Shown: piece after piece, positions 39,928-64,000 of the stretch | How the letters are laid out: the number at the start of each line of letters is the position of its first letter | Position numbering within the stretch: position 1 is the stretch's first letter | Assembly: GCA_900320975.1 (NCBI GenBank) | Contig: ONUE01000001.1 | Location: forward strand, 862 to 64,861 | DNA: 64,000 nucleotides | Origin: an uncultured Bacteroidales bacterium | GTDB taxonomy: Bacteria > Bacteroidota > Bacteroidia > Bacteroidales > P3 | Reading direction: 5' to 3' | The notes under the pieces: model-generated | The model's input: the letters and a program-made list of their open reading frames with translations, nothing else | Told to the model about the DNA's origin: nothing | The model's database searches: none | Translations under genes and position numbers: made by a program

Positions 39928-39935
39928 CAAAGATA
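39928..39935 (-). promoter_or_regulatory. -7 promoter box (TATCTTTG on the minus strand) upstream of recA
   Basis: Plus-strand CAAAGATA, 45 nt upstream of the recA ATG at 39883. The -33 is weak (GTTG). Confidence 0.5.
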
Positions 39936-40020
39936 CGTCTTTTTCGCGACATGTGCAACTTTTATTTGATAACAGATATCGAGTTTTTGATTATCAGTCT
40001 GTTGGCGTACGCGCTACCTA

Positions 40021-40129
40021 CCCCCTCCGACCCCTCACCGTCGTTTCTCCGAGGTTTTTCCTACTAAAAACCGTTAAACAGTCGGAGCGGGGACGGAGGG
40101 GGGACGGAGAGGGGACGGAGCGGCAGGGG
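40021..40129 (+). repeat. Intergenic hairpin/G-tract repeat element, copy 2
   Basis: CTCCGACCCCTCACCG...TTCTCCGAGG...CAGTCGGAGCGGGGACGGAGGGGGGACGGAGAGGGGACGGAG. By hand count, 80/96 identical without gaps to the reverse complement of 56869-56964. Four G-runs at 40089-40129. Confidence 0.88.
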
Positions 40130-40141
40130 TGAAAATATTAT

Positions 40142-40172
40142 TTTGTCGGGTTGGAAATTTTTCGTAATTTTG
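40142..40172 (+). promoter_or_regulatory. Predicted aminotransferase promoter (-33 TTTG, -7 TAATTTTG)
   Basis: TTTG at 40142-40145 and TAATTTTG at 40165-40172, 19-nt spacing. ATG at 40194. Confidence 0.6.
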
Positions 40173-41415: not shown

Positions 41416-41445
41416 AAAAGCCCCGATTTCGTCGGGGCTTTTTTT
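41416..41445. terminator. Bidirectional terminator between the aminotransferase gene and the giant-protein operon
   Basis: AAAAGCCCCGA-tttcg-TCGGGGCTTTTTTT between convergent stops (41396 and 41453). Confidence 0.8.
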
Positions 41446-41452
41446 ATGGTAC

Positions 41453-43765
41453 CTATAATATTCGTAGTATAGGAGGGGTGCTCGCGTTGGGCTGTGTCCA
41501 AAGGTAGCCGCCCGATGGGCGGTTCGTGTTGAGCGAGGTGGTGAGGGTAGCGAGGTCCGACTGTCTCATGCTGGTGGTAGTGACGTGTGTCTGGCTGCCG
41601 CCGAAAAGATAGCAGTTGGTGTAAGTGATGCTTTTCGAGGCACCGTAGAATACGCGGCTACTTTCATTGGAGTAGCAGTTCGTGATGGCGCCTCCTGTGA
41701 CTTTGCCTACGAAACCGCCCATGAGGTCGGAGGCGTCGCGGCGGGTTATGAACATGTTGTTGACGAAGCTGTTGGCTATGGTGCCGCCAGTCATGACGGC
41801 CACGAGGCCACCAACGATGCTGGAAGTGCCGTTGTGGGTGAGGATAGCCATGGCATCGCTGCTGTTCACGTAGCAGTTGATGATGATGCCCGCCGAGCTG
41901 TCGGCTATGGAGCCCAGGGATGTGCCTTGCAGCGAGGACTCACTCCAGCAGTAGTTGATTTTGCCGGTGGCGGCGTTGGTGTGTACGATGCCACCCACGC
42001 TGCCGCTGCAGAGGATGCTCGCGGTGCTGCTTATGTAGCAGCGGTCCACGGTGCCTTCGTTGTTATATACTATGCCGCCCCAGTTCACGGTGCTGGCGGT
42101 GTTGGTGATGCGGCTGGCGAAGTAGCAGTCTTTGACTTTGCCGGAGTTGCCGTTGATGTAGGCTATGCCGGCGGCGTTGGCTGCCGACGGCACCGTCATA
42201 GGCGAGGCCGACATGCATCCTTGTATTGTGCCGGTGTTGTTGTAGCAGATGCCTGCCACGACCTTGCCGTCGAAGAGGGCGGAGAGCGATGCCGAGCAGC
42301 GGCAGCCTTTGACGGTGCCGTTGTTGTTGACGACGATACCCGCCAGGTTGGCCAATCCCGAGGAGATACCTGTGGTCGAGGTGATGGCACAGTCTTCCAA
42401 GGTGCCGCTGTTTCGCAGACAGAGGGGGGAGAAATCGGCACTACCGGAGTGGTTGGTGTTGGATTTGACGGTGAGCCCCTTAACCTCGCCTCCGGAGAGG
42501 ATGCTCTCGAAGAGCGCAATGCTGCTGTTGTTGGTGATGCCCGGCGTGTTGCTGGCGGCAACGCAGGTGAGCTTGCCCACGAAGTTGGCGATACCGCGTG
42601 ACCAGTTTTCGGCATTGAGCACGATGTCGGAGCGCATGATGCGTATGTGGGTGTTAGCGGTGATGGGCTGCCCGTTGATGTAGCGGATGGCGGGCGGTGT
42701 GGCAGCGTTGTAGCAGTCGCGCAGGTACTGCAGGTCCTGGATGGTATAGACCTTGAAGGGGCGTGTGGAGGTGCCGCAGCCCGAGAGGCCTATATTGGTG
42801 GGGGTGGTGTTCCAGGCGTCGATGGAGAGGGCCTGCATATTGGTGATACCGTTGCGGCGTGTGGGTACGCGCATGGTGCGTGTGCAACTGCCGAGGTTGC
42901 TGTTGACGGTCATCTCGAGGGTGTAGGTGGTGGTGACTTCGCGCCCGCCGAGGGCCGGCAGCACGAGGTAGAAGGTCACCAGCGACTTGTCGTTGAAGGT
43001 GGGGCCGTAGTCGGTGAAGTCGAGTGTGACGGTGCGGTTGCTGGAGTTGTCGGTAGCCGCGAGGTAGGGGTTGTTGGTGTTGTAGTCGCGGACGTTAAAG
43101 AGGCCCACAAGCTGTTTGCTGTCGGAGGTGAAGGTGATGTTGTTGATGGTGGCCGCCGCTCCGGTGGAGTTGAAGAGTTGCACGCGCACTATGGCGCCCA
43201 GCGAGTGGAAGTCGAGGTTGAAGGGGGTTTGTTCCCATTCGCCGCCGTACCAGGCCACCATGGGGAACACCTGCTTGTCGAAGGTGCTGTCGTTGCGGTA
43301 GGTCTGGTTGGCAGGCAGGTAGATGGAGGAGGTGAAGGAGGTACCGCCGGCAGAGGCTATGACGTTGTTCCTGCTGCAGGGGTGCAGGCCGAGGAAGTAC
43401 TTGGAGTCTTCCGGCAGGGTGGTGAGGAAGACGCCATTGTAGTCGGCGAAGTCGTCGCCAGGGTCCATGGCGCCGTTGTAGTGGAGCCATGCCACATACT
43501 TCTCGCTGCTGTTGCTGGTGTTGCTGCCTATGCTGATGGAGTCGTCGTATTCCCATATGATGGCACGCTCGTTCTGGAGAAATACTTTGCTGTTCTCTCC
43601 CGCGTCATTGGCCAGGCGCTCGGTGGTGGCTGTGAACTGGAAAGTGGTGTCGCTAAACACTTTCTCTTTGCGACAGGCTGTGACCATCAAGGCCATGCAT
43701 GCCGCTATGACGACGGCGATGTGGCAGGGCCGCAGGTGGCTGTATGGATGTTTCATTATTCCCAT
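41453..43765 (-). CDS. Lipoprotein with a fimbrillin-like N-terminal domain and a GLUG-type repeat C-terminal half (gene D)
   Basis: 770 aa. Lipobox LMVTAC. After ~aa 330, GTSTRPFKVYTIQDLQYL is followed by repeats of the form GG(I/L/F)V....G.(I/V).(N/D/R)CY (GGIVYNNEGTVDRCY, GGIVHTNAATGKINYCW, GGLVAVMTGGTIANSF, GGFVGKVTGGAITNCY). An alternative start at 43756 gives a TAATG overlap with gene C. Confidence 0.8.
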   Translation of the reverse strand: MGIMKHPYSHLRPCHIAVVIAACMALMVTACRKEKVFSDTTFQFTATTERLANDAGENSKVFLQNERAIIWEYDDSISIGSNTSNSSEKYVAWLHYNGAMDPGDDFADYNGVFLTTLPEDSKYFLGLHPCSRNNVIASAGGTSFTSSIYLPANQTYRNDSTFDKQVFPMVAWYGGEWEQTPFNLDFHSLGAIVRVQLFNSTGAAATINNITFTSDSKQLVGLFNVRDYNTNNPYLAATDNSSNRTVTLDFTDYGPTFNDKSLVTFYLVLPALGGREVTTTYTLEMTVNSNLGSCTRTMRVPTRRNGITNMQALSIDAWNTTPTNIGLSGCGTSTRPFKVYTIQDLQYLRDCYNAATPPAIRYINGQPITANTHIRIMRSDIVLNAENWSRGIANFVGKLTCVAASNTPGITNNSSIALFESILSGGEVKGLTVKSNTNHSGSADFSPLCLRNSGTLEDCAITSTTGISSGLANLAGIVVNNNGTVKGCRCSASLSALFDGKVVAGICYNNTGTIQGCMSASPMTVPSAANAAGIAYINGNSGKVKDCYFASRITNTASTVNWGGIVYNNEGTVDRCYISSTASILCSGSVGGIVHTNAATGKINYCWSESSLQGTSLGSIADSSAGIIINCYVNSSDAMAILTHNGTSSIVGGLVAVMTGGTIANSFVNNMFITRRDASDLMGGFVGKVTGGAITNCYSNESSRVFYGASKSITYTNCYLFGGSQTHVTTTSMRQSDLATLTTSLNTNRPSGGYLWTQPNASTPPILRIL

Positions 43766-43953
43766 AATCCAATCTGGTATTCACCGCTGTTGTCGGTGTA
43801 TTCTGTTACCTCTTCCGACGCGCGCAGGGTGCGGTGGTCGGTTTGTCCCTCGATGAGCACATAGTCCTTGTCAAGGGCTATGGTCACACTGTAGCCTTTC
43901 TCCGGTGCGTAGCGGTAGACTTCAAGGGCCGGTTTTATGTATTGTTTCTTCAC
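43756..43953 (-). CDS. 65-aa acidic hypothetical protein (gene C), coupled between genes B and D
   Basis: GTG start overlaps the gene B stop (GTGA). Its TAA stop overlaps an ATG of gene D (TAATG). Third-position GC-rich codons resemble the neighbouring genes. No signal peptide, no Cys, no internal Met. Confidence 0.55.
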   Translation of the reverse strand: MKKQYIKPALEVYRYAPEKGYSVTIALDKDYVLIEGQTDHRTLRASEEVTEYTDNSGEYQIGLWE

Positions 43954-46900
43954 TGCTTGATTAGTTTTTGTATTGTCACGTTGTCCCCCGCATGGATGCG
44001 CAGGTAGTAGATGCCTGTGGAGCGGTTGGCGACGTTAATGGTTATGGTTTCGTTGCCGTTGGCGTCGTAGTCCTCAAGTTTGCGGCCCTCGTTGTCGTAG
44101 AGTTCCACATGCTGCAGGCTGGCGGCCTCGATAGTGACATAGTTGAGCGTCGGGTTGGGGTAGGCTCTGATGTCGCTCGGCGAGGTGCTGGCGGGCTCGG
44201 GCTGGTTGACGATGGTGTCGTGGAAGATGAGGGTGAGCGACACTATGCTGTCGCAGCCGTAGACGCTCTGGACGGTGTCGGTAAGCACGATGGTGACTTG
44301 GCCGAGGCTGTCGAGGTTGTTGCGCAGCAGCTCGCTCTCTTCCTGGCTCATGGTGAAGCCGTAGCCTTCGTAGGCCTCGCCAAGGATGGTGCTGTCGGAG
44401 AGGTTGACCACGCTGCCGTAGTGCAGCACGAAGCGTATGTGCATAGTGCTGTCGATCATCTCCACGTTGTCGATGACGCGGCGCGAGATGGTGTCACCGT
44501 CGTTATAGGCTATGCCTTCCCACTCGACGCTGTCGCAGCCGTAGACGGTCATGCTGTCGCGCACCGGTATCATGTCGGGCGTGCCGTAGATGGGATAGCC
44601 GTTGTTGACGGTCTCGAGGTCGCTGCGCCAGGTCTTGTAGTTGCCACCCTGGGCGTTCTGCTGGCGTACCCAGGCATTGAGGACGCGGGTCAGGTTGTTG
44701 ACGCCGCCCACGGGGTTACTGATGGACACTTGGTTGCCCTTGCCCTTGAAGGTGGCGGTATTGGTGAGGGAGGTGCTGCCCGTAGTGTTGCCGACGGCCT
44801 GCTTTGAAGCGTCTTCGGCGTAGTAGTTGCGGTCGGCCTTGGCGTTGTTGGCCATGGTGGCGGCCACACCGCCGGCGTTGTTCTCGCCGATGACTTCACC
44901 GTATACATAGTTGTTCTCCAACACGGTGTTCTGGGCATAGCCTACCAAGCCGCCCACGCGGTTGGAGTGGCCGTTGCTTACCAGCATGACGTAGTTGTTG
45001 GCAATGTGCGAGGGTTTGCCGGCGGCTTTGCTCTTCGAGCCGAAGAGGCGCTTCAGACCACTGAAGGCTTTTTGGTTGTCGTCGCCGGTGCTGTAACCCA
45101 CCAGACCGCCGACATAGATGCCGTTCATGCGGTTGTCGTTGCGCGCCACGCTGTTGTGCAACGTGTCGGCATTGCCGTAGCCTATCATACCGCCACTGTA
45201 GACGGCATCGCCAATATACTTGGCATACGACGTGGAGTTGGTTATCTTGTCGTTGTTAGACTGGCCGATAAGACCGCCGCTGACATAGTGGGTGGTGAGG
45301 ATGGTGGTGGTGTTAATCAGCGCACCCTCTTCGTTGGTGGTCACGGCCACATTGTCAACCTTGGCATCGCGCGAAGCGGCGGCCAAGGCACCCACATACT
45401 GGGCGCCGCGGGCGAAGACTCCCTGCAGCTCGATGCCGCTGATGCGGGCAGTGTCGAGGTTGCCGAAGAAGCCTGTGTATTCCATCTCGGGCTCGTTGAC
45501 GATGATGTTCTTGACGATGACCTTGTCGTAGATGGTGTCCACGGTGCCAGGCTCCATTCCGTTCGGGTCAAGCACTATTGCGTGTGTTGAGTGGTTCTCG
45601 TAATGGTGCAGAGGTTCGGTATCGGTGTCGCCGCTGCCCACGCCGATGAACCAGCCGCGGAAGGGCTGATGCTCTGTACCGACCGGGGTCCACAGGTAGT
45701 CTTTCATGTTGTAGCCTTCGGCCTTGTCGTGCAGGTATACCTTGTTGAAGTAGAACTGACGTGCCTGTACGCCGTTGAGGCCGTTGACCACACTGATGAA
45801 CCATGCCAAGCCTTCCTCATTATATATATGCACGTCGCCGTGGTAGGAGGTGGCATAGTTAGCACCGGCAGGACGCTGGTAGTAATAGTGGTCGTCGTAT
45901 TCGGCGTGTGCCTCGGCGGTGGTGTGGATATGCTCGTGCCAGTAGCTATTGGGGCCGAAGTAGGCAATGACGTCGGACTCATGCGGCGGCACCACATAGG
46001 CGGCGGGGTTCTTGTAGTAGGGGTCGAAGTCCCACATCAGGAAGTGGGTATTGGGCGTCACGCTGGTGTAGGGCTCGCGGGCCTTGAGGACCACGATGTC
46101 GCCTTCGCAGAAGTAGAGGTTGCTCAGCTCATGACGCTCGCTCTCGCTGACATATTCGTACACATGGTCGTTGTCGTCACCGGCCACCATGGCGGAGATG
46201 GTACCGGAGTTGCGGTCTACCCAGACATAGGGGACGACATGGATGGCCTTGTAGTTGCGGCTACCGTAGGCTATCTTGGCGCGGGCCGTGTCGGTCCAGC
46301 CATCGGTGGGTGTAAGCGACCAGTTGTTAGTGTCGGCTCTCTGCTCCGCAGTGGAAGTGCTGGCGAAGTAGGTGATGGGCGACGGCGTGTTGTCGAAGCT
46401 GCGGTTGATAGTAAGGTTGATGTCTTTGTAGAGGGTGCACTCACCCGTAGCGTCGGTGGCGGTAACGCGGATTGTGTGAGAGAGTTGTGCCTGGTCGGTG
46501 GATAGCTTGATGTAGGGCAGATAGAGCGTGTCGGCAATGGAGGCGAGGTATTTCTCCAGGCGCTGCTCATTGGTGAGGGTGACGTCGAGGAGTTCATTCT
46601 GCACCACTGCGTTGGCATAGGGTGTCTCTGCGGTCCTAAAGGGATCTGTGAAGTCGGGATCAGTCCACGTATAGGTGTAGGGTGCGAAACCACCCTGCAG
46701 GCGGTAGATGATACTGTCGCCGCCCAGCGGGCAGGAGTTCTCTATGTAGCCAAAATGCAGCGGGCTGCTGGACTTGATTTCCTCTGCCGTGAAGTCGGGA
46801 GTGTCGTCGCCATTGGCGTCAATTACGGCCAGCGGGTCGATGGTAGTATGTGTGCCGGAGGCATACCACTGGTGCTTGAAGGTGGCGCAGCGGAAGAGGT

Positions 46901-49900
46901 AGGCATACATGCTGTTGACCTTGGTGTTGTAGAAGATGCGCTCGTTGTCGTCGCTGGTGAAGACACCGTTGTAGACAGCATCGCTGAGGATGGAGTTGTC
47001 GCCGCCCTCGAAGGTGGCGAAGGCCATGGTGTCACGCATGGTGACGCCCGGGAACCACTTGCGCACGCCGATGCTGCTGGTGTTGCTCTGCGTACCGGAC
47101 ACCAGTATAAGGTCGCTCTTCACGTCGCCCATAGTGTCTTTGACGACGTTGCCGGTAGAGGTCTGTGTACGCGTCAGGTAGACGTTGGCCTTGGGCCAGT
47201 CGGCATACTTTGCTGGGTTCACTTCCCAGCGGGTGGCGGTTGCGGGATTATCCGGGTCGGGGTAGTAGGTCCACCAGCGGATGGCCTCTCTCGTGGCAGG
47301 ATCGCTGCTGTGGATGCCGGGGTTCATCAGGTGGTTCTCTGCAATCAGGATGGATGACAGGGGGCTCGACTCTTCAAGCTCCAGGATACCACCGTCGATG
47401 TATATTGTGCCGTTGCCCGGTTTGTGTGCGTCGTAGAGGGGATCTGCTGTGGAGTCGACGGGCATGGTGTGGACGAAGTTGTCCAAGAAGGTCACGTTGT
47501 TCTGCAGCTTGAGGATACCGCCGTTGGTGAGGCTCACGGCACCCATGTCGCGCGGCCGGCTGGAGATGCCGGCGGTGCGCTCCGAGGCACGTACGCCATA
47601 GCCGTTCCAGTTGTGTCTCACCGAGGTACCGTCGCTCAATGTCACGGTGCCGCTATCCATAATCTGCAGGATAGGTGCATAGGCAACATTGGTGTCGGGT
47701 TTGGCAATGCCGACGGCCAGCGGCACATAATACTGTGTGGTGGTCGGAGCGCCAGTAACCTCAGTGTCATTGGTGACTACTGAGCTGTACTGAGGCACAT
47801 CTGCTACGCGTTTGCAGGGCTTGATATGTCCACAGGCACCGCCGTGGAAGGCTATGTTGCGTGCCGAGAAGGTGGCTGAGGAGCCAGCCACCTGCACCAT
47901 CGGGCCGCGGTAGACGCAGCTGTCGCCCGGGAGGTCATGGTGGTGGCCTTCATAGCGTATCACCTCGATGGCAGGTCCTGTGGCGCCCTGGATAAAGACG
48001 TTTTGGCCATTGCCAATCTTCACGGTGTCTATGATACACAGCACGTCGCCCTCCTGGTAGACGCCTGTGGCCAGGGCCTGCTGGAAGTTGTTGACGTAGC
48101 ATCCGGGTGATTTGCCCAGGATGACTTTATCTCTGAGCAATTCTCCAACTTCGGCATGTGTGTATCTATAACTATACTTGTAGGGGAAGACCTTGACGCC
48201 GCCACGCTCCACATAGTCTGGATTCGAGGCTATGTAGATGGTGTCGCCGTGCTCACGTGTCTTCACGTTGACGGTGAGGTTGAATGTGCCGCGCTCTTCG
48301 TCGTTGTGGATGCTCTTGAAGGTCAGCACCACCTTGCCAACGTAGCCCTTGCCATTTATACCGTCGTAGGTACGGTTACCGTCGAAGTTGAGGCTCACGT
48401 TGAGCACCGTCGAGCCACGTCCGTTGAGCGTACCTATCATCAGGCCGTTGGCACCGTAAGGTTGGGTTGCACCGGCGGGGGTGAATCCCGGCAGGCTCTT
48501 CGAGAGCATTGTGTCGGTACTCCAAGTGCCGACGCCCTCAATGACTCCAGTACCTGTGGAGTCAATCAGGCGATAGACATTGATGGTATCCACACGGAGG
48601 CTGTTCCATCCGATAACGGCGTTGAGGTCGGTGGAGATGTTCTCGCCGGGCACTATGCTCATGGCAAAGCGGTTGTGCGAGCTGTGGTCGGTATGGCTTG
48701 TCCACGGCTCGGTAGTGCGTGGGTAGTTGGGATCCGTGCTGGTGACAGCGGTCTCGTCGGGTACCATGTAGAAGTGGTCCGTAGTATAACTAACAGTACT
48801 CGGGTTTATCTCCTCACCATTGCCGGTGGTAGCGTTGGTGGGCACCCACTTGACGGCTGTGAGGTAGAGGTCGCGCTCCTCCATCACTGCCGGCAGCATC
48901 ACCTTACGGGTGAAGGTGTTGGTGCGGCCGTTGTTATATATGGCGATGACGTCCTCTTCCATATCCTTGAAGTCCTCAACAATGGTCGAGATGTATACCT
49001 TCACCTCCACTTTGCCCACTTCGATGTCGCCTGCTGTGCCCTCTGCGCCGGCGGGCTTCATTTCCTTCATCACGAAGGAGACGGTGCCGAGGAAGGCCGA
49101 GGTGAAGTTGGTGTCATAGGTGAGGTAGAAGCGCATCTTGGGGCGTATCTGCGAGCCTTCGGCCACCTGTGGCGAACGGTAGATGCCCGCGGCGTTGACA
49201 TACGAGTTACCCGACACTACCAGACTGGCCGACGGGGTACCCTCGTCAGGATATATTGGTGTAGATGACGGGAATTCACCTGTTGTTGTCACAGGCACCA
49301 TCACCAGGCCGAAGGTGTTTTCTGGCGAGCGCTGTATTTCCGATACGCCGGTCTTCAGGCTCTCCGACGAGAGTGCAGCCTGATCCCACTTGCCGTGGGG
49401 ACCACCGTTGGCGGTCTCATCCTCATATACGTCGGTATTGTTGGCATGGTGAGAGCGTATGGAGTTGTCGCCATTGACGCCGCCGGAATAGCTGGTGAGC
49501 CAAGCCGAGTCCACCAGGTTCAGGGGTGCATTCTCACCCGATATGGAGAAGCCGCTAGTGCCGTCGAGCAGGTAGTAGTTGCCGCCATCGGTAGCCGGCA
49601 GGGTAATCTCGGCTTCGGCAATGGCGAGCTTCAGGGCTCCTTCCTTGAAGAGCACCGCCACATCGCTGTTAGGCAGCGAGTCGGGCACGGTGTGGGCCAG
49701 GATAGTGGTCTCGCGCTTACGTAAGCCGTCACCGGCACGCCACACACGGTAGTTTTTGGAGTTATAGTTGGTAAAGACGTGCTCGGCATCATCATCGGTA
49801 CGGTCACTCCATGTGATGTTGTCAGCAAGACGGTCGTCAGCCACTTTGTTAGAGTCTTGGCAGGTGGCCACGAAGCCGTCGTCGGTACTGTTGTTCTGGA

Positions 49901-52900
49901 CGTTCTTACCCACGATGGTCGAGCTGAAGCCGTTATTGGCTGCCACATAGCTGTAGCCATGCACCTCGCCATAGGAGCTGTTGTCCTGCAGGGTTACGTC
50001 GACACCGTTGTTGAGCAGCAGCAGCGTATGTTGCTTGCCCGAGGCATAGGGGTCTACCAGATTCATCTTCGCGCAGTCGTCCTCACAACCGGTCGTGAGG
50101 GCGTCGTGTACCAGCGTGGCGTTATCCACCAACTGCAGCTGGCCTAACACGAGGGCGTCCTCATATACATTCAGTTCTCCGATATAGTCCACGATGGCGT
50201 CCATCTGTGCCACGTTGTATCCGCGGAAGTTCAGCACGCCGAGGTTCAGCATCGAATAGGGCTCGCTGACGAAGGCCGAGGCGGCATTGGTGCTGCCCGT
50301 GTACTCGATGGCGGTGTTGTGTATCGTCACCGAGTCGGCGCGCTGTATAGACTCGAGCTGCTTGGAGACGGCGCAGTTGTCGGTTTCGCCGTAGTTGCGC
50401 ACCTCTATTGTTGACACTATATCGCCGGCGAGTGCCGAGGTACCGGCGCCGATGATACTCTTGCGGATGTTCATGGCGGGATCGCTGCCGCCGCTCACGA
50501 TGGTGGTCTGGTAGTCCTTACCGTCGATGACCACACGGCTCTCGCCGCCGTGGTAGCCCTCCTTGGTGAACGAGGTGTTACCGGTATTGGTACCCCAGTT
50601 GGCACCTGTGTATATCGAGTGGTTGATGTAGAGGTCTTCGCTGTGCCCCATGGCATCCACCAGGCCGCTGTCCACGCCGGGCTTGAACCTGCTGTAGGCC
50701 GCCACGCTGTCGGCGATGGTGTTGCGGTAGGCGCGGCATGTGTCGAGGGCCGTGGTACCCACGTTGACGTAGGTGGAGCCGTAGACGTCACCCAAATATC
50801 CGCCACCGTAGAGGAAGCCGTTGACCGTGCCGCCCGTGATGTTCACAATCGACGAGGGGCGTTTGGTGGTCTGGTCAAACACTTTGGCGCCTGCCTGATG
50901 GTCGGTACACTCGGCCTTGTATCCGTCGTGCACGAACTCCGAGCCGCCGTAGAGGCTCTCGAAGATGTAGCCGCCGTCCATGTTGACGTTCTTCAGTCCG
51001 TAGACGATAGGTGTCTGCGTTGCATCCTGGTAGTCACCGCAGCCGCCGGCGAAGACGTTCTTCAATATCTGGCCGCCGTGCATGTTGAGGATGATATAGC
51101 TGTACTCTGCGGGGTCTTTGTGAGCTGTGAGCCAGGTGAGCGTGGTGTCGGGCACCTTGACGCTGGGTTCCGTCTCGCCTTCACGGGGCACAAGGTGATA
51201 GCTGCCGTTGCTGTTGCGCTCGTAGCGGAACACCGTACCCATTCTGCCGCCGCCGTAGACGCAGCTGTCCACCAGGCCGTCATGTATGTTCAGCTCCACA
51301 TACTCGTTGTTGGGGCGTGTGATGAACTTGTTGCCGGCATATACACCGGTATTGTATGCGCTTGCGGGGTAGGTACCGTTGCCGGCGCCATAGATGTTCT
51401 TGAACTTGCCCGAGTAGACGTTTATGACGCTTCGGTTCACGTTACCGGTGAAGTCGTTGCCGCCGTAGAGGTGGTACACGAGGTTGATGCCCTCGAAGTC
51501 GAGGTGCGCCGTGCCGCTGACGTCACTGCCCCAGCAGCCGCCATAGAGCTCGAGGAATGGCTTGTCCCAAGCCTGGTAGGTCTTGATGAAGGTCTCGGCC
51601 ACATCGCCGCCCTTGCCGCCGCCGTAGGCCTTGGCGTCGGAGATCTGCGCGGCGTGGTAGAGGTGCATGTGCGTAGCTTCCGTGACGTTGCCGCGGTGCT
51701 CGTTGTTGAGGTTCTCCCAGTCGCCCTCGCCGCCGGCGTATACCGAACCCGCGATGACGGCCGTGTCGGCACCGCCCAGCCTGTCGTCGATGACGACGCA
51801 GGTGGCGCGGCAGTCGGCCATAGAGCCGCCGCCGTAGACTGTCGTGTTGATGTCGCCGCCCCAGATGTTGACGTTCGACGAGTCGACGTCGGGTTTGCCG
51901 GCTATTGTTATCATGCGGCCCGCCGAGTCGGCAGGGTTGCCGGTCGTCGTGGAGCCGTAGGGGTATATCTTGTTCAGGTGGTTGCCGATGGGTATGAAGT
52001 CATAGCGTCCGTTCGAACCGCCCCAGATGTGGTGCACCGTGCCGCCGCTCACGTCGACACGCGTGTTGCCGCCGATAAGGCCGCTGATATCGTTGCCGCC
52101 ATACAGGTAGTTGATGCCGTTGTCATGGGTCTTGGTCACGTCGACATACGACATGCCCGCCACGTCACCCATGCGGCAGCCGCCGAAGACGGTATCGGTG
52201 ATATATACGTTTTCGCTGTTCACCTTCACATAGGTCGTCACACCCTTCACGTCTTTGTTGTTGGCATCCTTGAAGGTCTCGTGCCATCCCATACGGCCTG
52301 CGTTGGCGCCGCCGTAGACGTTCTTGGCGCTACCATTCGTCAGACGTATCTCAGGCACACAGGTGGCCATCTCGTCGTGGTTGTTGCCGCCGAAGATGGT
52401 GCCCACAAATATCTTCTTGCGGGCTTCCGCCAGGGCGTCGTCGCCGATGGGCCAGTGGTACATGCTCTCCTCGTCGGCGCTCCATTCGCCGCGGTGGTTC
52501 GTAGCGTCGACATTGTCTATCTTCGTGTTGTTGAGCAGCACAATCACCTTGTCCTGCACACCGGCGCCGTCGCCGCCGCCGTAGATGGTGTCTATGTAGC
52601 CGCCACTGGTGTGGATGTCGAGGAATGCCGACTTCTGGTGCGGGAGGTTGCCGAGGTCGGCGGCGCATATCGAGATATCGTCGTCAATGCTCTCGGTCTC
52701 GCCGGTGTAGTCCCACTCGCCGTTGCCCGAGCCGTAGAGGGTGTGTATGCGCACCGAGTCCTCCACCCGGACATACACCGAGTAGTTGGCCTCCCACTTG
52801 TTCTCCACCGAATTGTATTCGTTCAGCTGCTCGTCCAGCGAGTTGACATAGTTCGCGCAGTTGGTGTTGAACTTCTCCACGCTGTCAGCATGCGTGACGG

Positions 52901-55900
52901 CGCCGCTATAGTCTATCGTGCTGCTGTGGTAGCTGCCGAAGGAGGTTACCTGGCCCGCCACGTCGTTACCGGCGAACACGGTGTTGATGTGGGCGTTGCC
53001 CTTGATGTTCATGTAGGCGATACCGTAAATGGAGGCCATGAAGCCGCCACCGAACACCTGGCCTTGTATCTCGCCGCCGCTGATGGTGGTGTGCACCTCG
53101 CCCATCTTCACGCCGTCGGCGGGACGCAGTATCGAGGGGTTCTCCCAGGTCTCGCCCTGGTACTTGATGTGGCCGTTGCTGGCGAAGCCCACCGAGGCGT
53201 TGATACCGGCACTGTAGACGTTACCCATGATGAGGCCGCCCTTGATGTGCACGTTGGTGTTGTTGTGGGTCGGTATGAGCTTGCCCACATGCTCGTGGTA
53301 GGGGTCGTAGGCTACGCCCGTATAGGTGTCGTAGAGGTCTTCCTCGTTGTAGTAACCCGGCTTCTTGGGGTCGCTGCAGTGCAGGTAACCATCCGAGCCG
53401 CCATAGACGTCGCCGAAGACCACCACGTTACTGTCGCACACCACATAGGTGCCCTCGGCAGTGCCCTTGCGGATGGTGCCGCCGTGGCCGTCGGGAATGT
53501 CCACGCCGCCGTAGTTGCGTGCCACCGTGCTTCCCACGTCGCCGCTGACGTCGTTACCGCCGTTGATGTAGCCGAAAGCACCGCCTGCGGCATAGACACC
53601 GCACGAGTACTTCACGTTGGCCTGGCGGCAGCCGCCGTACACATATTCACAGATGATATTGGAGGTGTGCAGTGCCGTCACTATGGAACCAATCATGCCC
53701 GGCATGGGGCCGTCCCAGCCTGAATTATAGGGTGCTTCGTTCGGGCCAAGGGATTTCAGCAGCAGGTTGTTGTAGATGGAAGGCAGACCCACGCCGGAAT
53801 GGCCGTTGTTGTTCATATCGCCGGCATTGCCACCGCCGTAAATAGAGCACACGCCGCCCGAGTGCAGCTGCACCATGGACACAGTGCTCATAGTGGCAGC
53901 GTTGTTGCCGCCGAAGAGGCAGCGTATGTTGTAGCGTCCTTGGTCACCTTCCCACTCGTCGATGTTCGTGTTGCGGCAGTTGTCGGTGGTGTCGGTGGTG
54001 GGGTTGGTCCAGATGAAGTGGCCGTTGTGGCCGAAACGGTCTATCTCGCCGTTGCGCAAGCATTCCACAGTGCCGTAGGCCTGGGTCACGGTGGCGTTGT
54101 TGCCGCCGAGGAACACGGTGTCGCACATGCCGCCGAGGATTCTCACGTTGGCGTGCGAGCCGTCCACCAGGTTGCCGCCGCCGAAGAGGTGGCGTATGCC
54201 GAAGTCGCGTCCGTAGCCGCTGAGGAGGGTGTTCTCGATGTCCTCCTCGTCGGTGAGCTTGGTGTTGAAGACGTCGACGAACACCGTCGAGGTCGTGGCC
54301 ACCTGGCCGCCGTAGTTGTTGCCGCCGAAGACGGTCATCAGGGTGCCGCCGTTGATGTCGATGGTAACACCGTTGGCAGGCTCTTCCTCTGAAGCCGTCA
54401 CACCGATATAGGCGTTCTCGGCGCCGCCGAAGAGCGAGTCGATGAGGATATAGTCGTTGTGCAGGTAGTGGTAGTCGTCCACGGTGTCGCTCACGCCCAC
54501 GGTGATGTGGCTCGTGCGTATGTAGGGTATGGTGCCCGAGTAGATGGCGTCAGTATGGGTGCCCTGGCCCTTCTCGGCGTGGGTGAAGTTCGCCAAGTTG
54601 TCCGTGGGGTCGAAGCCGAAGGTGTGGTCCACCACGGGCGTGGCGCCAAGGGTTCCCGAGGTGCCCCAGGGGTACACTTTGCCCTCGAAGGCATAGTCGC
54701 CGCCGTAGATGCCGCGGCCGGAGAGCACGCTGTTGTCTCTCCAGCAGGCCGACTCCTCTCCTCCGGCGAGGCGCGCGGCGAGGTCATACAAGCCTCCGTA
54801 GCTGTAATATCCGCAGCCGCCGCCGTAGATATATCCGATGTGCACGGGGTGCTCCTCGCCGGTGAGTTCGGTGCCCAGCTGTATGGTGGCGCCCTTCTCG
54901 CCCTGCACCCAGCCGGCGATATCGTTGCCGCCGTAGAGAGCGTAGATGGTGTCGGCGCTGTGCACGGTGATGTGTGTGTTGCCGCCCACGATGTCGTTGG
55001 TCTCGCTGCCCACGGTGTTGTTGCCGTAGTCCCAGCCCACGTTGGCCACGCGGCCACCGCCGAAGACCATGCCGCCGATGGCGGGGCCTCGGCGCGCCTT
55101 CACGACGGTGCGTTCAGGGGTGTAGCTGATATAGAGGGTGTCTTTGTGCACCTGCGTGGTGCCGTTGCTGTAGTACACCGTGGTGGTCAGGTGTACGCTG
55201 TGGCGGCTAACGGGGGGCTCGCTGACGATGAACGACAACTCGTAGTTGTTGGCCTCATTGTTGCGGCTGTTGTCGAGGGTGAGGTAGCGGCTGGAACGGG
55301 GGTCGACGCCGAAGCGCACCGAGTCGATGGTGGTCTCGTCGTTGAGGGTGTCGGGCATCTGACGGTGCTTCTCGTAGGCGCCGCCGTGCGATTCGGGCCA
55401 GTAGTAGAGGGTGTCGCGTGTGGCCACACCGTTGCTGCCGTAGATCTCGTTTTCGCGATAGTCATAACTCAGCGATATACCGCGACGGTAGCTCTCCTCG
55501 ACGTACATGTTGTACTCCGGCACCACCTTCATGATGATTGTGTGGTCGCGGTTGTAGGTGATGTTGGGGTTCAGCACCAGAGTGTCCTCGTAGGTTAGCT
55601 CCAGGTTGTGGATTTCATAGGGGTCGACGTCCTGGCCTTTCTTCTTGCCCATCACATCCTGCAGACCCTTGCCGTCGACAATCTTGCCAATCTCGCGGTC
55701 GTTGTAGGTGGCCGTCACAGGCATCACTGTGGCCGGCATGCCGTGGGGGATGTTGTACCTCGTGTGGTCCACTGTGATGACGCGGTTGTCGTAGAAGGTT
55801 ACAGTAGGGGTGGGGAAGTAGCTTCGCTCTTCATCCAGTGTAGAGTAGGGAGGGTTGTAGTCATTGTTGTTGTAGGGGTTGTACATCAGCTCGTCGGGGC

Positions 55901-56747
55901 GCTGGTAGCTGTGGTTCGACAAGGTGTCCCATGTGCCGAGCATGATGTTGTCATGGTGACCAATGGTGTCGAACATAATCCAGTAGTAGCGGCTGCTGTT
56001 GTTCTCCGTCACCGTCACAGCGGCGCCGAAGTCCCAGTCGAACCATTCCGTCTCAATTTTCACGTTGTCGCCGACGGCAGTGGCGTCAACGCCTATCAGG
56101 TTGTTGCCCTCGGCGTCGGTATGGTGGTTCAAGCGGTAGATGTAGGTGTTGCCGTCGCGTTCGCAATACCACTCTTGGTAGTAGAAACCTGTCTGGCCGC
56201 CGGTGGTGGAGCTGCGCTCCCACAGGCAGAGCGGGTCGAAGCCCTGCGTAAGGTTGTTATAGAGGCCGTGTGTGCCGAAGCTGTTCACCTCGGCCACGCG
56301 CCAAGGCACCACCCTGCCCTCCATTTTTCCGGTGGTGGAGTTGTATATGGTGTCGAGCTTCAGGTATACCTCGCCCTGCGACACTATGAGGTTGGTGTTC
56401 TCCTCGGCATGGTGCCCCAAGGTTCTTATCTCGTCCCAGCTGCTCGTCTCGTCCCAGCCGCGCACATAGCGGTTGGCGGCATCCTGGTCCGCAGGCGGGT
56501 TGTCGCCGTCGATCCACCACAGGTTGCCGTTGGTGAGGGTATAGAAAGTCTTGGTCTCCGACTGTGCCTGGGCCGTCGGCATCATTCCTGCCATCGTCAG
56601 CAGGAACACCAGCAGGAACATCACTCTGTGGATGCCTTTCTCGTGTGCGCACGTTGCGCCCGTGTAATATTTATATTTTATAGTGCTCAGCATGGTATAT
56701 CTACAATCAAATAACCGGTCAACCCTATGCAACAGCCTGGTATACAT
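43950..56747 (-). CDS. Giant (4265-aa) T9SS-sorted cell-surface repeat protein (gene B)
   Basis: One uninterrupted ORF. Signal peptide ...MFLLVFLLTMAGMMPTAQA. ~1550-aa [F/Y]GGG glycine-rich repeat region, one SprB-like repeat, GLUG-type repeats, CDS-motif modules and a C-terminal T9SS sorting domain. Alternative starts at 56693 (M19) or 56621 (M43). Confidence 0.9.
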   Translation of the reverse strand: MYTRLLHRVDRLFDCRYTMLSTIKYKYYTGATCAHEKGIHRVMFLLVFLLTMAGMMPTAQAQSETKTFYTLTNGNLWWIDGDNPPADQDAANRYVRGWDETSSWDEIRTLGHHAEENTNLIVSQGEVYLKLDTIYNSTTGKMEGRVVPWRVAEVNSFGTHGLYNNLTQGFDPLCLWERSSTTGGQTGFYYQEWYCERDGNTYIYRLNHHTDAEGNNLIGVDATAVGDNVKIETEWFDWDFGAAVTVTENNSSRYYWIMFDTIGHHDNIMLGTWDTLSNHSYQRPDELMYNPYNNNDYNPPYSTLDEERSYFPTPTVTFYDNRVITVDHTRYNIPHGMPATVMPVTATYNDREIGKIVDGKGLQDVMGKKKGQDVDPYEIHNLELTYEDTLVLNPNITYNRDHTIIMKVVPEYNMYVEESYRRGISLSYDYRENEIYGSNGVATRDTLYYWPESHGGAYEKHRQMPDTLNDETTIDSVRFGVDPRSSRYLTLDNSRNNEANNYELSFIVSEPPVSRHSVHLTTTVYYSNGTTQVHKDTLYISYTPERTVVKARRGPAIGGMVFGGGRVANVGWDYGNNTVGSETNDIVGGNTHITVHSADTIYALYGGNDIAGWVQGEKGATIQLGTELTGEEHPVHIGYIYGGGCGYYSYGGLYDLAARLAGGEESACWRDNSVLSGRGIYGGDYAFEGKVYPWGTSGTLGATPVVDHTFGFDPTDNLANFTHAEKGQGTHTDAIYSGTIPYIRTSHITVGVSDTVDDYHYLHNDYILIDSLFGGAENAYIGVTASEEEPANGVTIDINGGTLMTVFGGNNYGGQVATTSTVFVDVFNTKLTDEEDIENTLLSGYGRDFGIRHLFGGGNLVDGSHANVRILGGMCDTVFLGGNNATVTQAYGTVECLRNGEIDRFGHNGHFIWTNPTTDTTDNCRNTNIDEWEGDQGRYNIRCLFGGNNAATMSTVSMVQLHSGGVCSIYGGGNAGDMNNNGHSGVGLPSIYNNLLLKSLGPNEAPYNSGWDGPMPGMIGSIVTALHTSNIICEYVYGGCRQANVKYSCGVYAAGGAFGYINGGNDVSGDVGSTVARNYGGVDIPDGHGGTIRKGTAEGTYVVCDSNVVVFGDVYGGSDGYLHCSDPKKPGYYNEEDLYDTYTGVAYDPYHEHVGKLIPTHNNTNVHIKGGLIMGNVYSAGINASVGFASNGHIKYQGETWENPSILRPADGVKMGEVHTTISGGEIQGQVFGGGFMASIYGIAYMNIKGNAHINTVFAGNDVAGQVTSFGSYHSSTIDYSGAVTHADSVEKFNTNCANYVNSLDEQLNEYNSVENKWEANYSVYVRVEDSVRIHTLYGSGNGEWDYTGETESIDDDISICAADLGNLPHQKSAFLDIHTSGGYIDTIYGGGDGAGVQDKVIVLLNNTKIDNVDATNHRGEWSADEESMYHWPIGDDALAEARKKIFVGTIFGGNNHDEMATCVPEIRLTNGSAKNVYGGANAGRMGWHETFKDANNKDVKGVTTYVKVNSENVYITDTVFGGCRMGDVAGMSYVDVTKTHDNGINYLYGGNDISGLIGGNTRVDVSGGTVHHIWGGSNGRYDFIPIGNHLNKIYPYGSTTTGNPADSAGRMITIAGKPDVDSSNVNIWGGDINTTVYGGGSMADCRATCVVIDDRLGGADTAVIAGSVYAGGEGDWENLNNEHRGNVTEATHMHLYHAAQISDAKAYGGGKGGDVAETFIKTYQAWDKPFLELYGGCWGSDVSGTAHLDFEGINLVYHLYGGNDFTGNVNRSVINVYSGKFKNIYGAGNGTYPASAYNTGVYAGNKFITRPNNEYVELNIHDGLVDSCVYGGGRMGTVFRYERNSNGSYHLVPREGETEPSVKVPDTTLTWLTAHKDPAEYSYIILNMHGGQILKNVFAGGCGDYQDATQTPIVYGLKNVNMDGGYIFESLYGGSEFVHDGYKAECTDHQAGAKVFDQTTKRPSSIVNITGGTVNGFLYGGGYLGDVYGSTYVNVGTTALDTCRAYRNTIADSVAAYSRFKPGVDSGLVDAMGHSEDLYINHSIYTGANWGTNTGNTSFTKEGYHGGESRVVIDGKDYQTTIVSGGSDPAMNIRKSIIGAGTSALAGDIVSTIEVRNYGETDNCAVSKQLESIQRADSVTIHNTAIEYTGSTNAASAFVSEPYSMLNLGVLNFRGYNVAQMDAIVDYIGELNVYEDALVLGQLQLVDNATLVHDALTTGCEDDCAKMNLVDPYASGKQHTLLLLNNGVDVTLQDNSSYGEVHGYSYVAANNGFSSTIVGKNVQNNSTDDGFVATCQDSNKVADDRLADNITWSDRTDDDAEHVFTNYNSKNYRVWRAGDGLRKRETTILAHTVPDSLPNSDVAVLFKEGALKLAIAEAEITLPATDGGNYYLLDGTSGFSISGENAPLNLVDSAWLTSYSGGVNGDNSIRSHHANNTDVYEDETANGGPHGKWDQAALSSESLKTGVSEIQRSPENTFGLVMVPVTTTGEFPSSTPIYPDEGTPSASLVVSGNSYVNAAGIYRSPQVAEGSQIRPKMRFYLTYDTNFTSAFLGTVSFVMKEMKPAGAEGTAGDIEVGKVEVKVYISTIVEDFKDMEEDVIAIYNNGRTNTFTRKVMLPAVMEERDLYLTAVKWVPTNATTGNGEEINPSTVSYTTDHFYMVPDETAVTSTDPNYPRTTEPWTSHTDHSSHNRFAMSIVPGENISTDLNAVIGWNSLRVDTINVYRLIDSTGTGVIEGVGTWSTDTMLSKSLPGFTPAGATQPYGANGLMIGTLNGRGSTVLNVSLNFDGNRTYDGINGKGYVGKVVLTFKSIHNDEERGTFNLTVNVKTREHGDTIYIASNPDYVERGGVKVFPYKYSYRYTHAEVGELLRDKVILGKSPGCYVNNFQQALATGVYQEGDVLCIIDTVKIGNGQNVFIQGATGPAIEVIRYEGHHHDLPGDSCVYRGPMVQVAGSSATFSARNIAFHGGACGHIKPCKRVADVPQYSSVVTNDTEVTGAPTTTQYYVPLAVGIAKPDTNVAYAPILQIMDSGTVTLSDGTSVRHNWNGYGVRASERTAGISSRPRDMGAVSLTNGGILKLQNNVTFLDNFVHTMPVDSTADPLYDAHKPGNGTIYIDGGILELEESSPLSSILIAENHLMNPGIHSSDPATREAIRWWTYYPDPDNPATATRWEVNPAKYADWPKANVYLTRTQTSTGNVVKDTMGDVKSDLILVSGTQSNTSSIGVRKWFPGVTMRDTMAFATFEGGDNSILSDAVYNGVFTSDDNERIFYNTKVNSMYAYLFRCATFKHQWYASGTHTTIDPLAVIDANGDDTPDFTAEEIKSSSPLHFGYIENSCPLGGDSIIYRLQGGFAPYTYTWTDPDFTDPFRTAETPYANAVVQNELLDVTLTNEQRLEKYLASIADTLYLPYIKLSTDQAQLSHTIRVTATDATGECTLYKDINLTINRSFDNTPSPITYFASTSTAEQRADTNNWSLTPTDGWTDTARAKIAYGSRNYKAIHVVPYVWVDRNSGTISAMVAGDDNDHVYEYVSESERHELSNLYFCEGDIVVLKAREPYTSVTPNTHFLMWDFDPYYKNPAAYVVPPHESDVIAYFGPNSYWHEHIHTTAEAHAEYDDHYYYQRPAGANYATSYHGDVHIYNEEGLAWFISVVNGLNGVQARQFYFNKVYLHDKAEGYNMKDYLWTPVGTEHQPFRGWFIGVGSGDTDTEPLHHYENHSTHAIVLDPNGMEPGTVDTIYDKVIVKNIIVNEPEMEYTGFFGNLDTARISGIELQGVFARGAQYVGALAAASRDAKVDNVAVTTNEEGALINTTTILTTHYVSGGLIGQSNNDKITNSTSYAKYIGDAVYSGGMIGYGNADTLHNSVARNDNRMNGIYVGGLVGYSTGDDNQKAFSGLKRLFGSKSKAAGKPSHIANNYVMLVSNGHSNRVGGLVGYAQNTVLENNYVYGEVIGENNAGGVAATMANNAKADRNYYAEDASKQAVGNTTGSTSLTNTATFKGKGNQVSISNPVGGVNNLTRVLNAWVRQQNAQGGNYKTWRSDLETVNNGYPIYGTPDMIPVRDSMTVYGCDSVEWEGIAYNDGDTISRRVIDNVEMIDSTMHIRFVLHYGSVVNLSDSTILGEAYEGYGFTMSQEESELLRNNLDSLGQVTIVLTDTVQSVYGCDSIVSLTLIFHDTIVNQPEPASTSPSDIRAYPNPTLNYVTIEAASLQHVELYDNEGRKLEDYDANGNETITINVANRSTGIYYLRIHAGDNVTIQKLIKQ
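43953..44177 (-). other. T9SS C-terminal sorting domain (type A CTD) of gene B
   Basis: AYPNPTLNYVTIEA...VELYDNEGRKL...INVANRSTGIYYLRIHAGDNVTIQKLIKQ matches the Por-secretion-tail pattern (YPNP, hydrophobic strands, G.Y.(L/V).(I/V), terminal K(L/V)(I/V)K). Confidence 0.85.
44793..45410 (-). repeat. GLUG-type repeat block in gene B
   Basis: Six units: YVGALAAASRDAKVDNV, VSGGLIGQSNNDKITNS, YSGGMIGYGNADTLHNS, YVGGLVGYSTGDDNQ, RVGGLVGYAQNTVLENN, NAGGVAATMANNAKADRN. Paralogous to the C-terminal half of gene D. Coordinates are approximate. Confidence 0.7.
46400..46750 (-). other. Single SprB-like repeat in gene B
   Basis: CPLGGDSIIYRLQGGFAPYTYTWTDP...IRVTATDATGECTLYKDINLTINR resembles the SprB repeat pattern (C..G......GG..PYTY.W......TD..GC). 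Coordinates are approximate. Confidence 0.5.
50400..55085 (-). repeat. Glycine-rich [F/Y]GGG repeat region of gene B (predicted beta-helix/solenoid)
   Basis: Dozens of irregularly spaced motifs (VFGGGRVANVG, LYGGNDIAG, IYGGGCGYY, LFGGGNLVDGS, IYGGGNAGD, VYGGCRQAN, VFGGGFMAS, IYGGGDGAG ... LYGGGYLGDVYG). Same motif family as gene A. Coordinates are approximate. Confidence 0.75.
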
Positions 56748-56759
56748 TTATGTATACCA
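56738..56759. promoter_or_regulatory. Perfect 9-bp inverted repeat (TGGTATACA-ttta-TGTATACCA) in the gene B leader
   Basis: Lies ~20-40 nt downstream of the predicted -7 box. The most upstream in-frame ATG (56747) straddles the stem/loop junction (C,A in the stem, T in the loop). Confidence 0.6.
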
Positions 56760-56783
56760 AACCGCATAGTCTTGTCCGTATTG

Positions 56784-56814
56784 CAAAGATACTAAAATAA
56801 TTCATTCCGACAAA
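56784..56814 (-). promoter_or_regulatory. Predicted gene B promoter (-33 TTTG, -7 TATCTTTG)
   Basis: Plus-strand CAAAGATA at 56784-56791 and CAAA at 56811-56814, exact 19-nt spacing. Matches the Bacteroidetes sigma-A consensus. Confidence 0.6.
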
Positions 56815-56868
56815 AAATTGTTCTCGCTTCGTTTTTTGTGCTTTTTTTCTCTCTCTAACTCCTTGTTT

Positions 56869-56975
56869 CTCCGTACCCTCTCCGTCCCCCCTCCGTCCCC
56901 GCTCCGACTGAACACCGGGAAAACGTAGTAAAATCCTCGGAGAAGTGCCGGTGAGGGGTCGGAGCGGCGGCGGAG
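56869..56975 (-). repeat. Intergenic hairpin/G-tract repeat element, copy 3 (minus orientation)
   Basis: The reverse complement reads CTCCGCCGCCGCTCCGACCCCTCACCGGCACTTCTCCGAGGATTTTACTACGTTTTCCCGGTGTTCAGTCGGAGCGGGGACGGAGGGGGGACGGAGAGGGTACGGAG. Begins 13 nt after the gene A stop and ends ~55 nt upstream of the gene B -33 box. Confidence 0.88.
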
Positions 56976-56987
56976 TTTATTCGTTGT

Positions 56988-64000: not shown

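Follow-up and report, generated by a model that had tools for sequence, protein, structure and literature searches.

A conserved gene cassette of uncultured Bacteroidales predicted to encode a giant type IX secretion cargo, a 65-residue protein and a pilin-fold lipoprotein

Main

The window analysed here is a 64,000-nt stretch of contig ONUE01000001.1 (assembly GCA_900320975.1) from an uncultured Bacteroidales bacterium. Its positions 41453-64000 are filled by four same-direction minus-strand genes, identified from the open reading frame (ORF) list and its translation and termed A, B, C and D in their order along the strand. B, C and D form a cassette that recurs in this order across uncultured Bacteroidales, often with an A-like gene upstream. 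We suggest, with about even confidence, that the cassette is a lineage-specific surface adhesin of uncultured ruminant-gut Bacteroidales, in which a giant protein displayed through the T9SS (type IX secretion system), B, is combined with a pilin-like lipoprotein, D. The four genes are as follows.

56988-64000, minus strand: 3' part of gene A, at least 2337 amino acids (aa); the frame is open to the window end and the start lies beyond it
43950-56747, minus strand: gene B, 4265 aa, predicted giant T9SS type-A cargo (ORF)
43756-43953, minus strand: gene C, 65 aa, GTG start (ORF)
41453-43765, minus strand: gene D, 770 aa, predicted lipoprotein (ORF)

A first-pass annotation of this DNA had described the same minus-strand block, and each ORF lies where it was placed there. 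The tight junctions that it listed are likewise present: the B stop and the C start overlap as GTGA, and the C stop and the D start meet as TAATG, or overlap by 10 nt if D uses an upstream ATG.

Conservation and linkage of B, C and D

Scanning one genome per species yielded 35 loci, all from uncultured Bacteroidales metagenome-assembled genomes, most of which are labelled rumen or ruminant gut. A metagenome scan with the B alignment added 43 further loci. The first-pass annotation had proposed a survey of B-C-D co-occurrence, and its outcome is positive: a C homologue and, before it, the 3' end of a B homologue come ahead of D in 34 of the 35 species-level loci. In the metagenome loci, C is found whenever the sequence extends to the 3' end of B, and D comes next wherever the contig goes on past C. 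Neither D nor C was seen outside the cassette context in the 35 genomes. The genes flanking the cassette differ between lineages, and the linkage of B, C and D is therefore not that of an inherited neighbourhood. Spacing is also tight, with a gap of -4 nt between the B stop and the C start in 31 of 81 loci and of no more than 45 nt in nearly all; the gap between C and D is at most ~60 nt in most of the 81.

Of the 28 loci with more than 1 kb of sequence upstream of B, 24 have an A-like gene there. It is missing in loci L056 and L057 (9 kb of upstream sequence available) and duplicated in L055, L064 and L067, and in L074 4.4 kb lie between it and B. B-C-D thus makes up the core, with A as a frequent but optional companion. 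Of the idea that A is a fixed part of the system, the frequency stands (24/28), but the constancy does not, given the losses and duplications. Overall, the sequence comparisons support the view that it is not by chance that A, B, C and D lie together.

The cassette is intact in at least 12 assemblies of the window's species, where B measures 4245-4247 aa, and the remainder of the window is chromosomal core (rpoB, rpoC, pgi, fabF, bamA, two ompH genes, mazG and relA). Because of these housekeeping neighbours and the retention in conspecific assemblies, the earlier description of the block as an accessory locus is doubtful.

Individual loci vary around the cassette. The ~4.4 kb between the A-like gene and B in L074 (5553-9986) holds ORFs without a Pfam match, and the B-C spacing there is identical to that in L048. 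Tandem A-like giant genes precede B at L055 1189-13304, L067 2092-14385 and L064 1-9183; in the L055 and L067 pairs the first gene has a non-repetitive N-terminal region and the second begins its repeats immediately after the signal peptide. In L007 (GCA_017964365.1; 17123-19019), D is immediately followed by PqqD-like, weakly ScmC-like and S26 peptidase/VanZ genes, which look like a peptide-maturation set and were not seen next to the cassette in the other gene tables examined. A Beta_elim_lyase (tryptophanase-like) gene occurs near the cassette in two lineages (L008 1-1025; L057 7886-9427), upstream of the A-like gene in one and directly upstream of B, with A missing, in the other.

Gene B, a predicted type-A T9SS cargo

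The signal peptide and type-A C-terminal domain reported for B were both recovered. The sorting domain exceeds both curated cut-offs, with PF18962 at E 8e-12 (45.7 bits versus a cut-off of 27) and TIGR04183 at E 1.2e-10 (41.2 bits versus 23). All six homologues returned by a search with whole B carry PF18962, the wider sampling coming from the metagenome scan, and in NCBI the relative MCR5589154.1 bears the name ‘T9SS type A sorting domain-containing protein’. When the B profile was compared with PDB sequences at E ≤ 0.1, the matches were to T9SS C-terminal domains only. By its sequence, B qualifies as a genuine T9SS cargo of type A. The window and the ±10-kb loci show none of the T9SS core genes (porK/L/M/N, sov, porU/V); the genomes were not searched for them.

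Homologues of B span 4059-4349 aa and are conserved over their full length. They indicate a true start at M19 (56693), which would give a 4247-aa product, and B therefore probably starts there rather than at the first ATG. The protein can be divided as follows.

56565-56693, minus strand: N-terminal leader with a Sec signal peptide ending in MFLLVFLLTMAGMMPTAQA before QSE, read from the translation; homologues have the same N-terminus
55086-56564, minus strand: non-repetitive N-terminal region, aa ~62-554, where B varies most; presumed distal tip
50418-55085, minus strand: Gly-rich body, aa ~555-2110, with GGG/GGND units, a presumed β-solenoid stalk, recognised by its motifs and a weak similarity to A
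44568-45860, minus strand: GLUG-like region, aa ~3630-4060, two stretches at 18.7 bits with Pfam GLUG, sub-threshold
43953-44162, minus strand: predicted type-A T9SS sorting domain, aa 4196-4265 (PF18962, TIGR04183)

In this layout, which was read from the sequence, a long middle region lies between the repeat body and the GLUG-like region. The GGG/GGN columns of the body are invariant across the B homologue alignment. The N-terminal region is only 29-33% identical to distant homologues, versus 48-60% in the repeat body, and differences between near-identical strains fall mostly within the first ~1000 residues. Such variability between species and strains is what would be expected of a distal binding tip. 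The N-terminal region has no Pfam match even at E ≤ 1. Elsewhere, the GLUG-like region gives a faint Peptidase_M26_N match, and one SprB-repeat match at aa 3351-3365 stays sub-threshold (18.6-19.3 bits versus a cut-off of 28).

Gene D, a lipoprotein with a predicted pilin fold and β-helix

More than 200 homologues of D were found; among the 120 matches listed, all are full-length (736-810 aa) and 41-100% identical. An NCBI relative is labelled ‘hypothetical’. The homologues point to a true start at the MKH of position 43756, so D probably begins there, with a product of 767 aa. Its lipobox, L-x-[ST]-A-C, has a Cys (C31) that is invariant in 30 of 30 homologues, in agreement with the lipoprotein assignment made at first pass. 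The Cys is followed by the consensus C-[ER]-K-E, which is C-E-K-E for the family and C-R-K-E-K in the window's own D. Bacteroidetes surface lipoproteins carry the export signal C-X-K-(D/E)2 (PMC5080379), which the residues after the Cys of D resemble at the sequence level.

A structural model of D was built with AlphaFold2 (AF2) from 30 homologues and reached a mean predicted local distance difference test (pLDDT) score of 84.8. It consists of two parts.

42791-43648, minus strand: N-terminal module, aa ~40-325, a modelled double β-sandwich (AF2 and Foldseek)
41561-42778, minus strand: C-terminal right-handed β-helix, aa ~330-735, with GLUG-type repeats and conserved Cys (AF2, pLDDT mostly > 90)

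The N-terminal module matched 3t2l, 3ufi, 4h40, 4k4k and 4qdg in Foldseek with probabilities of 0.98-1.00 and a best E of 3.9e-6. These are Bacteroides ‘putative cell adhesion proteins’; for the first four the probability is 1.00 and the target-normalised template modelling (TM) score is 0.35-0.48. Weaker matches were obtained to the P. gingivalis fimbrial proteins Mfa3 (5nf4, probability 0.98) and Mfa4 (5dhm, 0.92). On the basis of the model, the module is predicted to have a type V pilin fold of two β-sandwich domains. For the C-terminal half, the best matches are the streptococcal IgA1 proteases 6xjb (E 4.2e-4, probability 0.98) and 7uvk (E 1e-3). GLUG (PF07581) scores 17.4-18.3 bits here, below the cut-off of 20.5, and Peptidase_M26_N gives sub-threshold matches in both B and D. 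The earlier statement that none of the four proteins has an assignable function was therefore too strong for D, for which a pilin fold and an IgA1-protease-type β-helix were found.

Further features of the modelled D bear on its possible pilin character. A short β-strand is predicted at aa 42-46, followed by a variable, low-confidence loop that closes at an invariant Lys (K60). Type V pilins have an anchor strand and a protease site (PMC13655056), of which this arrangement is reminiscent. The pilin module carries no C-terminal donor strand and is instead followed by the β-helix (440 aa). No fimbrillin family model matched aa 31-330 in Pfam, even at E ≤ 1, or in NCBIfam, and no stalk, anchor or other pilin-like gene was found in any locus whose genes were examined. 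With neither donor strand nor pilin neighbours, the modelled D would be compatible only with a tip- or accessory-like role, and because stalk and anchor pilin genes, a family match and a donor strand are all lacking, we do not file D as a pilin family member.

Gene C, a highly conserved small protein

The product of C is acidic (pI 4.9) and predicted to be all-β, with no signal peptide and no Cys. Between B and D, all 81 loci analysed have an intact C ORF, of 61-74 aa. Its identity is 51-83% in most of the 35 genome loci, versus 27-46% for B; it falls to 37-40% in the three most distant loci, and no C was found in L044. An alignment of 25 sequences has 20 invariant columns. In these comparisons, C is the best conserved of the cassette genes, and it is under strong purifying selection. 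When 1.84 billion representative proteins were searched with a profile of C, ~30 relatives came up, nearly all of them stand-alone proteins of 48-74 aa, and no relative was detectable outside the cassette by Pfam (even at E ≤ 10), by the profile search or within the window.

C had been proposed as a small coupling factor of a surface structure. The lack of a signal peptide excludes it as a building block of a surface fibre, and any coupling would take place in the cytoplasm.

Several other origins of C were considered and rejected. It does not appear to be an in-trans T9SS sorting domain for A, as hhalign of C with the sorting domain of B gave a probability of 0.3% and a signal peptide is lacking. 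Nor is it a duplicated piece of A, B or D, since a C hidden Markov model run against the six-frame translated window matched C alone. A readthrough or frameshift extension of B is disfavoured by the varying frame relation (same frame, overlap or spacer) and by the separate start codon of C, ATG or GTG, in 79 of 81 loci.

Gene A, an optional giant repeat protein

Gene A is open for 2337 codons from 56988 to the window end. In the conspecific contig L006, the product is 6556 aa long and 96% identical to the window's A over the common part. Six Fn3-associated-type modules at its C-terminus, described in the first-pass annotation, were confirmed by Pfam, motif and BLAST self-comparison.

56991-58421, minus strand: six CHB_HEX_C_1/Fn3_assoc modules at the A C-terminus, aa ~1860-2336 (Pfam E 1.9e-32, 2.3e-30)

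By motif and BLAST self-comparison, the modules start near aa 1872, 1960, 2040, 2121, 2197 and 2276. Complete A-like homologues carry Sec signal peptides and end either in such modules or at ‘...VIIGDYE’, where several homologues that lack the modules terminate. A T9SS sorting domain was found in none of the complete A-like homologues examined, which agrees with the earlier claim that B alone carries the sorting signal. The claim of a common [F/Y]GGG body also held: [FYW]GGG motifs number 24 in A versus 10 in B, BLAST relates the two proteins at E 1e-6, and their bodies have degenerate DNA repeat families in common. A PDB sequence search with A gave Fn3-like matches at most. In L008, the first 591 aa of a complete A-like homologue have no Pfam match; other A-like N-termini go straight into repeats.

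Higher-order repeats were seen in A at 60884-62996, where 130-153-nt segments recur every ~1440-1620 nt at 70-75% identity; this suggests an ancient super-repeat of ~500 aa and not a recent expansion. An N-terminal domain common to B and some A-like proteins, noticed by eye as ‘Y.L..NG...FDP.C.W’, was not supported (BLAST E 0.44). The length of 1121 aa called for A in L005 is an artefact of gene calling: on the plus strand of L005, an ORF matches the window's A at 97% apart from one interrupting stop, and over this broken copy (L005 1-6185) the caller annotated six antisense ‘genes’. Long plus-strand ORFs of up to 1057 aa also run antisense to A and B in the window, e.g., 50550-53723 (plus) and 61791-63617 (plus); they are a by-product of the GC-rich Gly-codon repeats.

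Relation to known surface systems

As the first-pass annotation had surmised, searches of Pfam, NCBIfam, PDB sequences and the literature brought up no characterised system of the same composition, and the literature searched contained no description of the cassette. In the Mfa1 pilus operon of P. gingivalis, a protein with a T9SS C-terminal domain, Mfa5, is encoded together with the lipoprotein-derived pilins Mfa3 and Mfa4, which lack a donor strand (PMC7835359; PMC13655056). The cassette is similar in placing a predicted T9SS cargo (B) and a lipoprotein with a modelled type V pilin fold (D) in one operon. It differs in having neither a stalk pilin (Mfa1/FimA) nor an anchor pilin (Mfa2/FimB). 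Furthermore, the repeat fibre B, of 4265 aa, has no vWA domain, D adds a 440-aa β-helix to its pilin module and matches no Pfam fimbrillin family, and a conserved 65-aa cytoplasmic protein is encoded between the two. Mfa5 with Mfa3/4 is the closest precedent for the cassette.

Giant T9SS adhesins are common in general. The SprB and RemA gliding adhesins of Flavobacterium johnsoniae are giant repetitive T9SS surface proteins, SprB being encoded in an sprCDBF operon with accessory genes; its sorting domain is of type B, and it depends on a PorP/SprF-like outer-membrane protein encoded next to it. B resembles SprB as a multi-thousand-residue repetitive protein, predicted to reach the surface by the T9SS and encoded with dedicated accessory genes. 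However, its sorting domain is type A, its repeats belong to another family, and the cassette has neither a PorP-like neighbour nor SprC/SprD relatives.

Other likenesses are limited to single components. The IgA1 metalloproteases (ZmpA family, 6xjb/7uvk) have the right-handed β-helix predicted for the C-terminal half of D, but the cassette has no M26 protease domain, its GLUG matches lie below the Pfam cut-offs, and the helix is either fused to the pilin module of D or embedded in the T9SS cargo B. A and B are also reminiscent of FHA-like TpsA proteins and polymorphic membrane proteins in being giant, Gly-rich, Sec-exported and presumed β-solenoids. As regards two-partner-secretion and autotransporter systems, no TPS domain, TpsB partner, autotransporter barrel or corresponding Pfam match was found, the N-termini considered being those of A-like homologues, as that of A itself lies beyond the window, and the only Omp85 protein near the cassette is the housekeeping BamA, encoded with the OmpH genes. 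What is unusual here is that B, C and D are so strictly linked, together with the very conserved cytoplasmic protein of 65 aa, the predicted fusion of a pilin module to a β-helix and a 6556-aa partner without a sorting domain.

Proposed function and alternatives

In the adhesin that we propose, B would be exported by Sec and recognised by the T9SS via its type-A domain, which would be cleaved as B is joined covalently to anionic lipopolysaccharide. B would then form a stalk of ~4200 residues made of β-solenoid and β-sandwich segments. As attachment would be C-terminal, the GLUG-like region would lie at the membrane and the variable N-terminal region at the far, ligand-binding end. D would reach the outer membrane as a lipoprotein, probably on the outer face, with its pilin-fold module and β-helix placed at the foot of B, where it may be a partner, an accessory adhesin or an organiser. 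C would remain in the cytoplasm, translationally coupled to B and D, most likely as a dedicated assembly, holding or regulatory factor. A would be a paralogous, Sec-exported second fibre that probably needs B and/or D for surface display. We infer the surface location, the adhesion, the contacts between proteins and the role of C from the sequences and models above; a physical complex of A, B and D is purely conjectural.

Several observations weigh against this proposal. None of A, B and D contains a recognised adhesin or lectin domain, Pfam leaves ~90% of B unmatched even at E ≤ 1, and the β-solenoid fold of A and B is presumed from their repeat patterns. A lacks a sorting domain, which leaves its route across the outer membrane unexplained. 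The AF2 model of C reached a pLDDT of 59, and Foldseek returned nothing for it at E < 2. The C-R-K-E-K of the window's D fits the surface export signal less well than the family consensus does. The GLUG blocks that the first-pass annotation had described as common to B and D are similar at the level of the motif; homology between the two regions, however, is not upheld, since GLUG stays below 20.5 bits, BLASTP found nothing, and hhalign gave 9% for the whole profiles (and elsewhere in the proteins) and 26% for the regions themselves.

The main alternative is that A, B and D are independent, co-regulated surface proteins, with C as a small cytoplasmic regulator or an unrelated gene, and that no multi-component structure exists. 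We consider this unlikely, albeit worth taking seriously. In its favour, B is equipped with a promoter and leader of its own, A can be missing or present in more than one copy, and the sequence relationship of B and D is not significant; moreover, by established T9SS principles, a type-A cargo needs no dedicated anchoring partner. On the other hand, the B-C-D order and spacing are kept down to 27-38% B identity while the flanks change, D and C are confined to the cassette in the 35 genomes, and the start/stop overlaps suggest coupled stoichiometry.

A second alternative draws on the pilin fold of D. Here the cassette would be a hybrid, type V-pilus-like assembly with D as tip or adaptor pilin: cleavage after Lys60 would remove the lipidated anchor strand, and the vacated groove would take up a donor strand, e.g., the conserved ‘...VIIGDYE’ of A-like proteins, thereby tethering the giant fibre. 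The anchor-strand-like strand at aa 42-46, the low-confidence loop and the invariant K60 match the description of type V pilins (PMC13655056). The lack of a C-terminal donor strand is a trait of tip pilins, and A-like proteins have a conserved extreme C-terminus despite lacking a sorting domain. Nevertheless, we give this assembly a low probability. Stalk and anchor pilin genes are missing from every examined locus, as is a Pfam fimbrillin match from D, and the K60 cleavage is hypothetical. In the window, L066, L079 and L083, the ‘GDY’ motif is internal, with Fn3_assoc modules after it, and in L056 and L057 the cassette is present without A.

An enzymatic role, in which B and/or D are T9SS-secreted β-helix lyases or hydrolases for plant cell-wall or glycan degradation, seems similarly improbable. 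The D model also matches the GH87 enzyme 6k0v (E 1.9e-4), the fucoidan lyase 7xz9 and phage depolymerases, and A ends in chitobiase/hexosaminidase-associated modules. In rumen Bacteroidetes, carbohydrate-active enzymes (CAZymes) have been linked to the T9SS (PMC5831590). The enzyme matches are, however, weaker than those to pilins and IgA1 proteases and are typical of generic β-helix similarity. No CAZyme or lyase family matched in Pfam even at E ≤ 1, no polysaccharide utilisation genes (SusC/D) lie nearby in the window or the examined loci, and the sizes and repeat architecture are those of fibres.

A polymorphic toxin-immunity pair, with B delivering a toxic domain and C as immunity protein, would account for a small, acidic, cytoplasmic protein encoded directly after a giant secreted one, but is very improbable, because C is the most conserved and not a variable gene, the C-terminal third of B is conserved and closes in a T9SS sorting domain where a variable toxin tip would be expected, no toxin family matched, and D is always there as a third partner.

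Within the adhesin proposal, one may go further and speculate that B, as a T9SS-anchored giant stalk, and D jointly capture and display A, a protein of up to 6556 aa that lacks an outer-membrane targeting signal, by pilin-type strand complementation, with C piloting or metering the output of such large substrates; two Bacteroidota-specific surface pathways would then be merged in a hitherto unrecognised mode of fibre building. We regard this extension as a long shot. Should the parts interact, the cassette would be a second case, after Mfa5, of cross-talk between the T9SS and lipoprotein-pilin pathways.

Among the major rumen community members are uncultured Bacteroidales, and their means of attachment to plant particles, host surfaces or other microbes is largely unknown. 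The window's species spends ~11,600 codons on the four cassette proteins, most of this sequence being without a family assignment. On account of such an investment, kept intact across many species, the cassette is a strong candidate for the role of a principal organelle of attachment. For T9SS and type V pilus biology it poses three puzzles: a predicted fusion of pilin module and β-helix, a giant Sec-exported protein without a known route across the outer membrane, and, between two exported proteins, a cytoplasmic one that is both tiny and very conserved.

Regulatory elements of the cassette

The first-pass annotation had placed a repeat element, a promoter and a leader hairpin in the A-B spacer and a terminator 3' of D, and all four were recovered.

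56868-56906, no strand assigned: 11-nt tandem repeat TCTCCGTCCCC in the A-B spacer, 3.5 copies (Tandem Repeats Finder, 89% matches; also read directly)
56784-56814, minus strand: Bacteroidetes-type promoter upstream of B, TTTG-N19-TAtcTTTG (pattern search)
56717-56777, minus strand: leader stem-loop between the promoter and the B start (RNA fold -33.5 kcal/mol, z -4.64)
41416-41442, minus strand: intrinsic terminator common to D and the convergent aminotransferase gene, with an 11-bp stem

As a sigma-70 promoter scan is uninformative for Bacteroidota (9 found versus 6.4 expected), the pattern TTTG-N17-21-TAnnTTTG was used instead. It matched five times in the window versus 0.38 expected, and none of 100 shuffles reached five. 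None of 200 shuffles folds as stably as the leader stem-loop, which buries the first in-frame ATG of B (56747). The terminator stem has 6 GC pairs and is flanked by an A-run and a T-run.

The other four promoter-pattern matches lie outside the cassette, at 15067-15097 (minus), 21510-21542 (minus), 24350-24380 (plus) and 40142-40172 (plus). The last coincides with the annotated start of the aminotransferase gene, which therefore probably starts further downstream; in L005 the aminotransferase is called as 400 aa.

Other features of the window

No Rfam family was found anywhere in the window. By synteny with L005, the minus-strand ORF 38849-39958 is recA, and after it 38178-38990 (minus) encodes a 223-aa protein without a Pfam family. 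The plus-strand ORF 38825-40132 (435 aa), which overlaps recA, has no family match and is probably not a gene.

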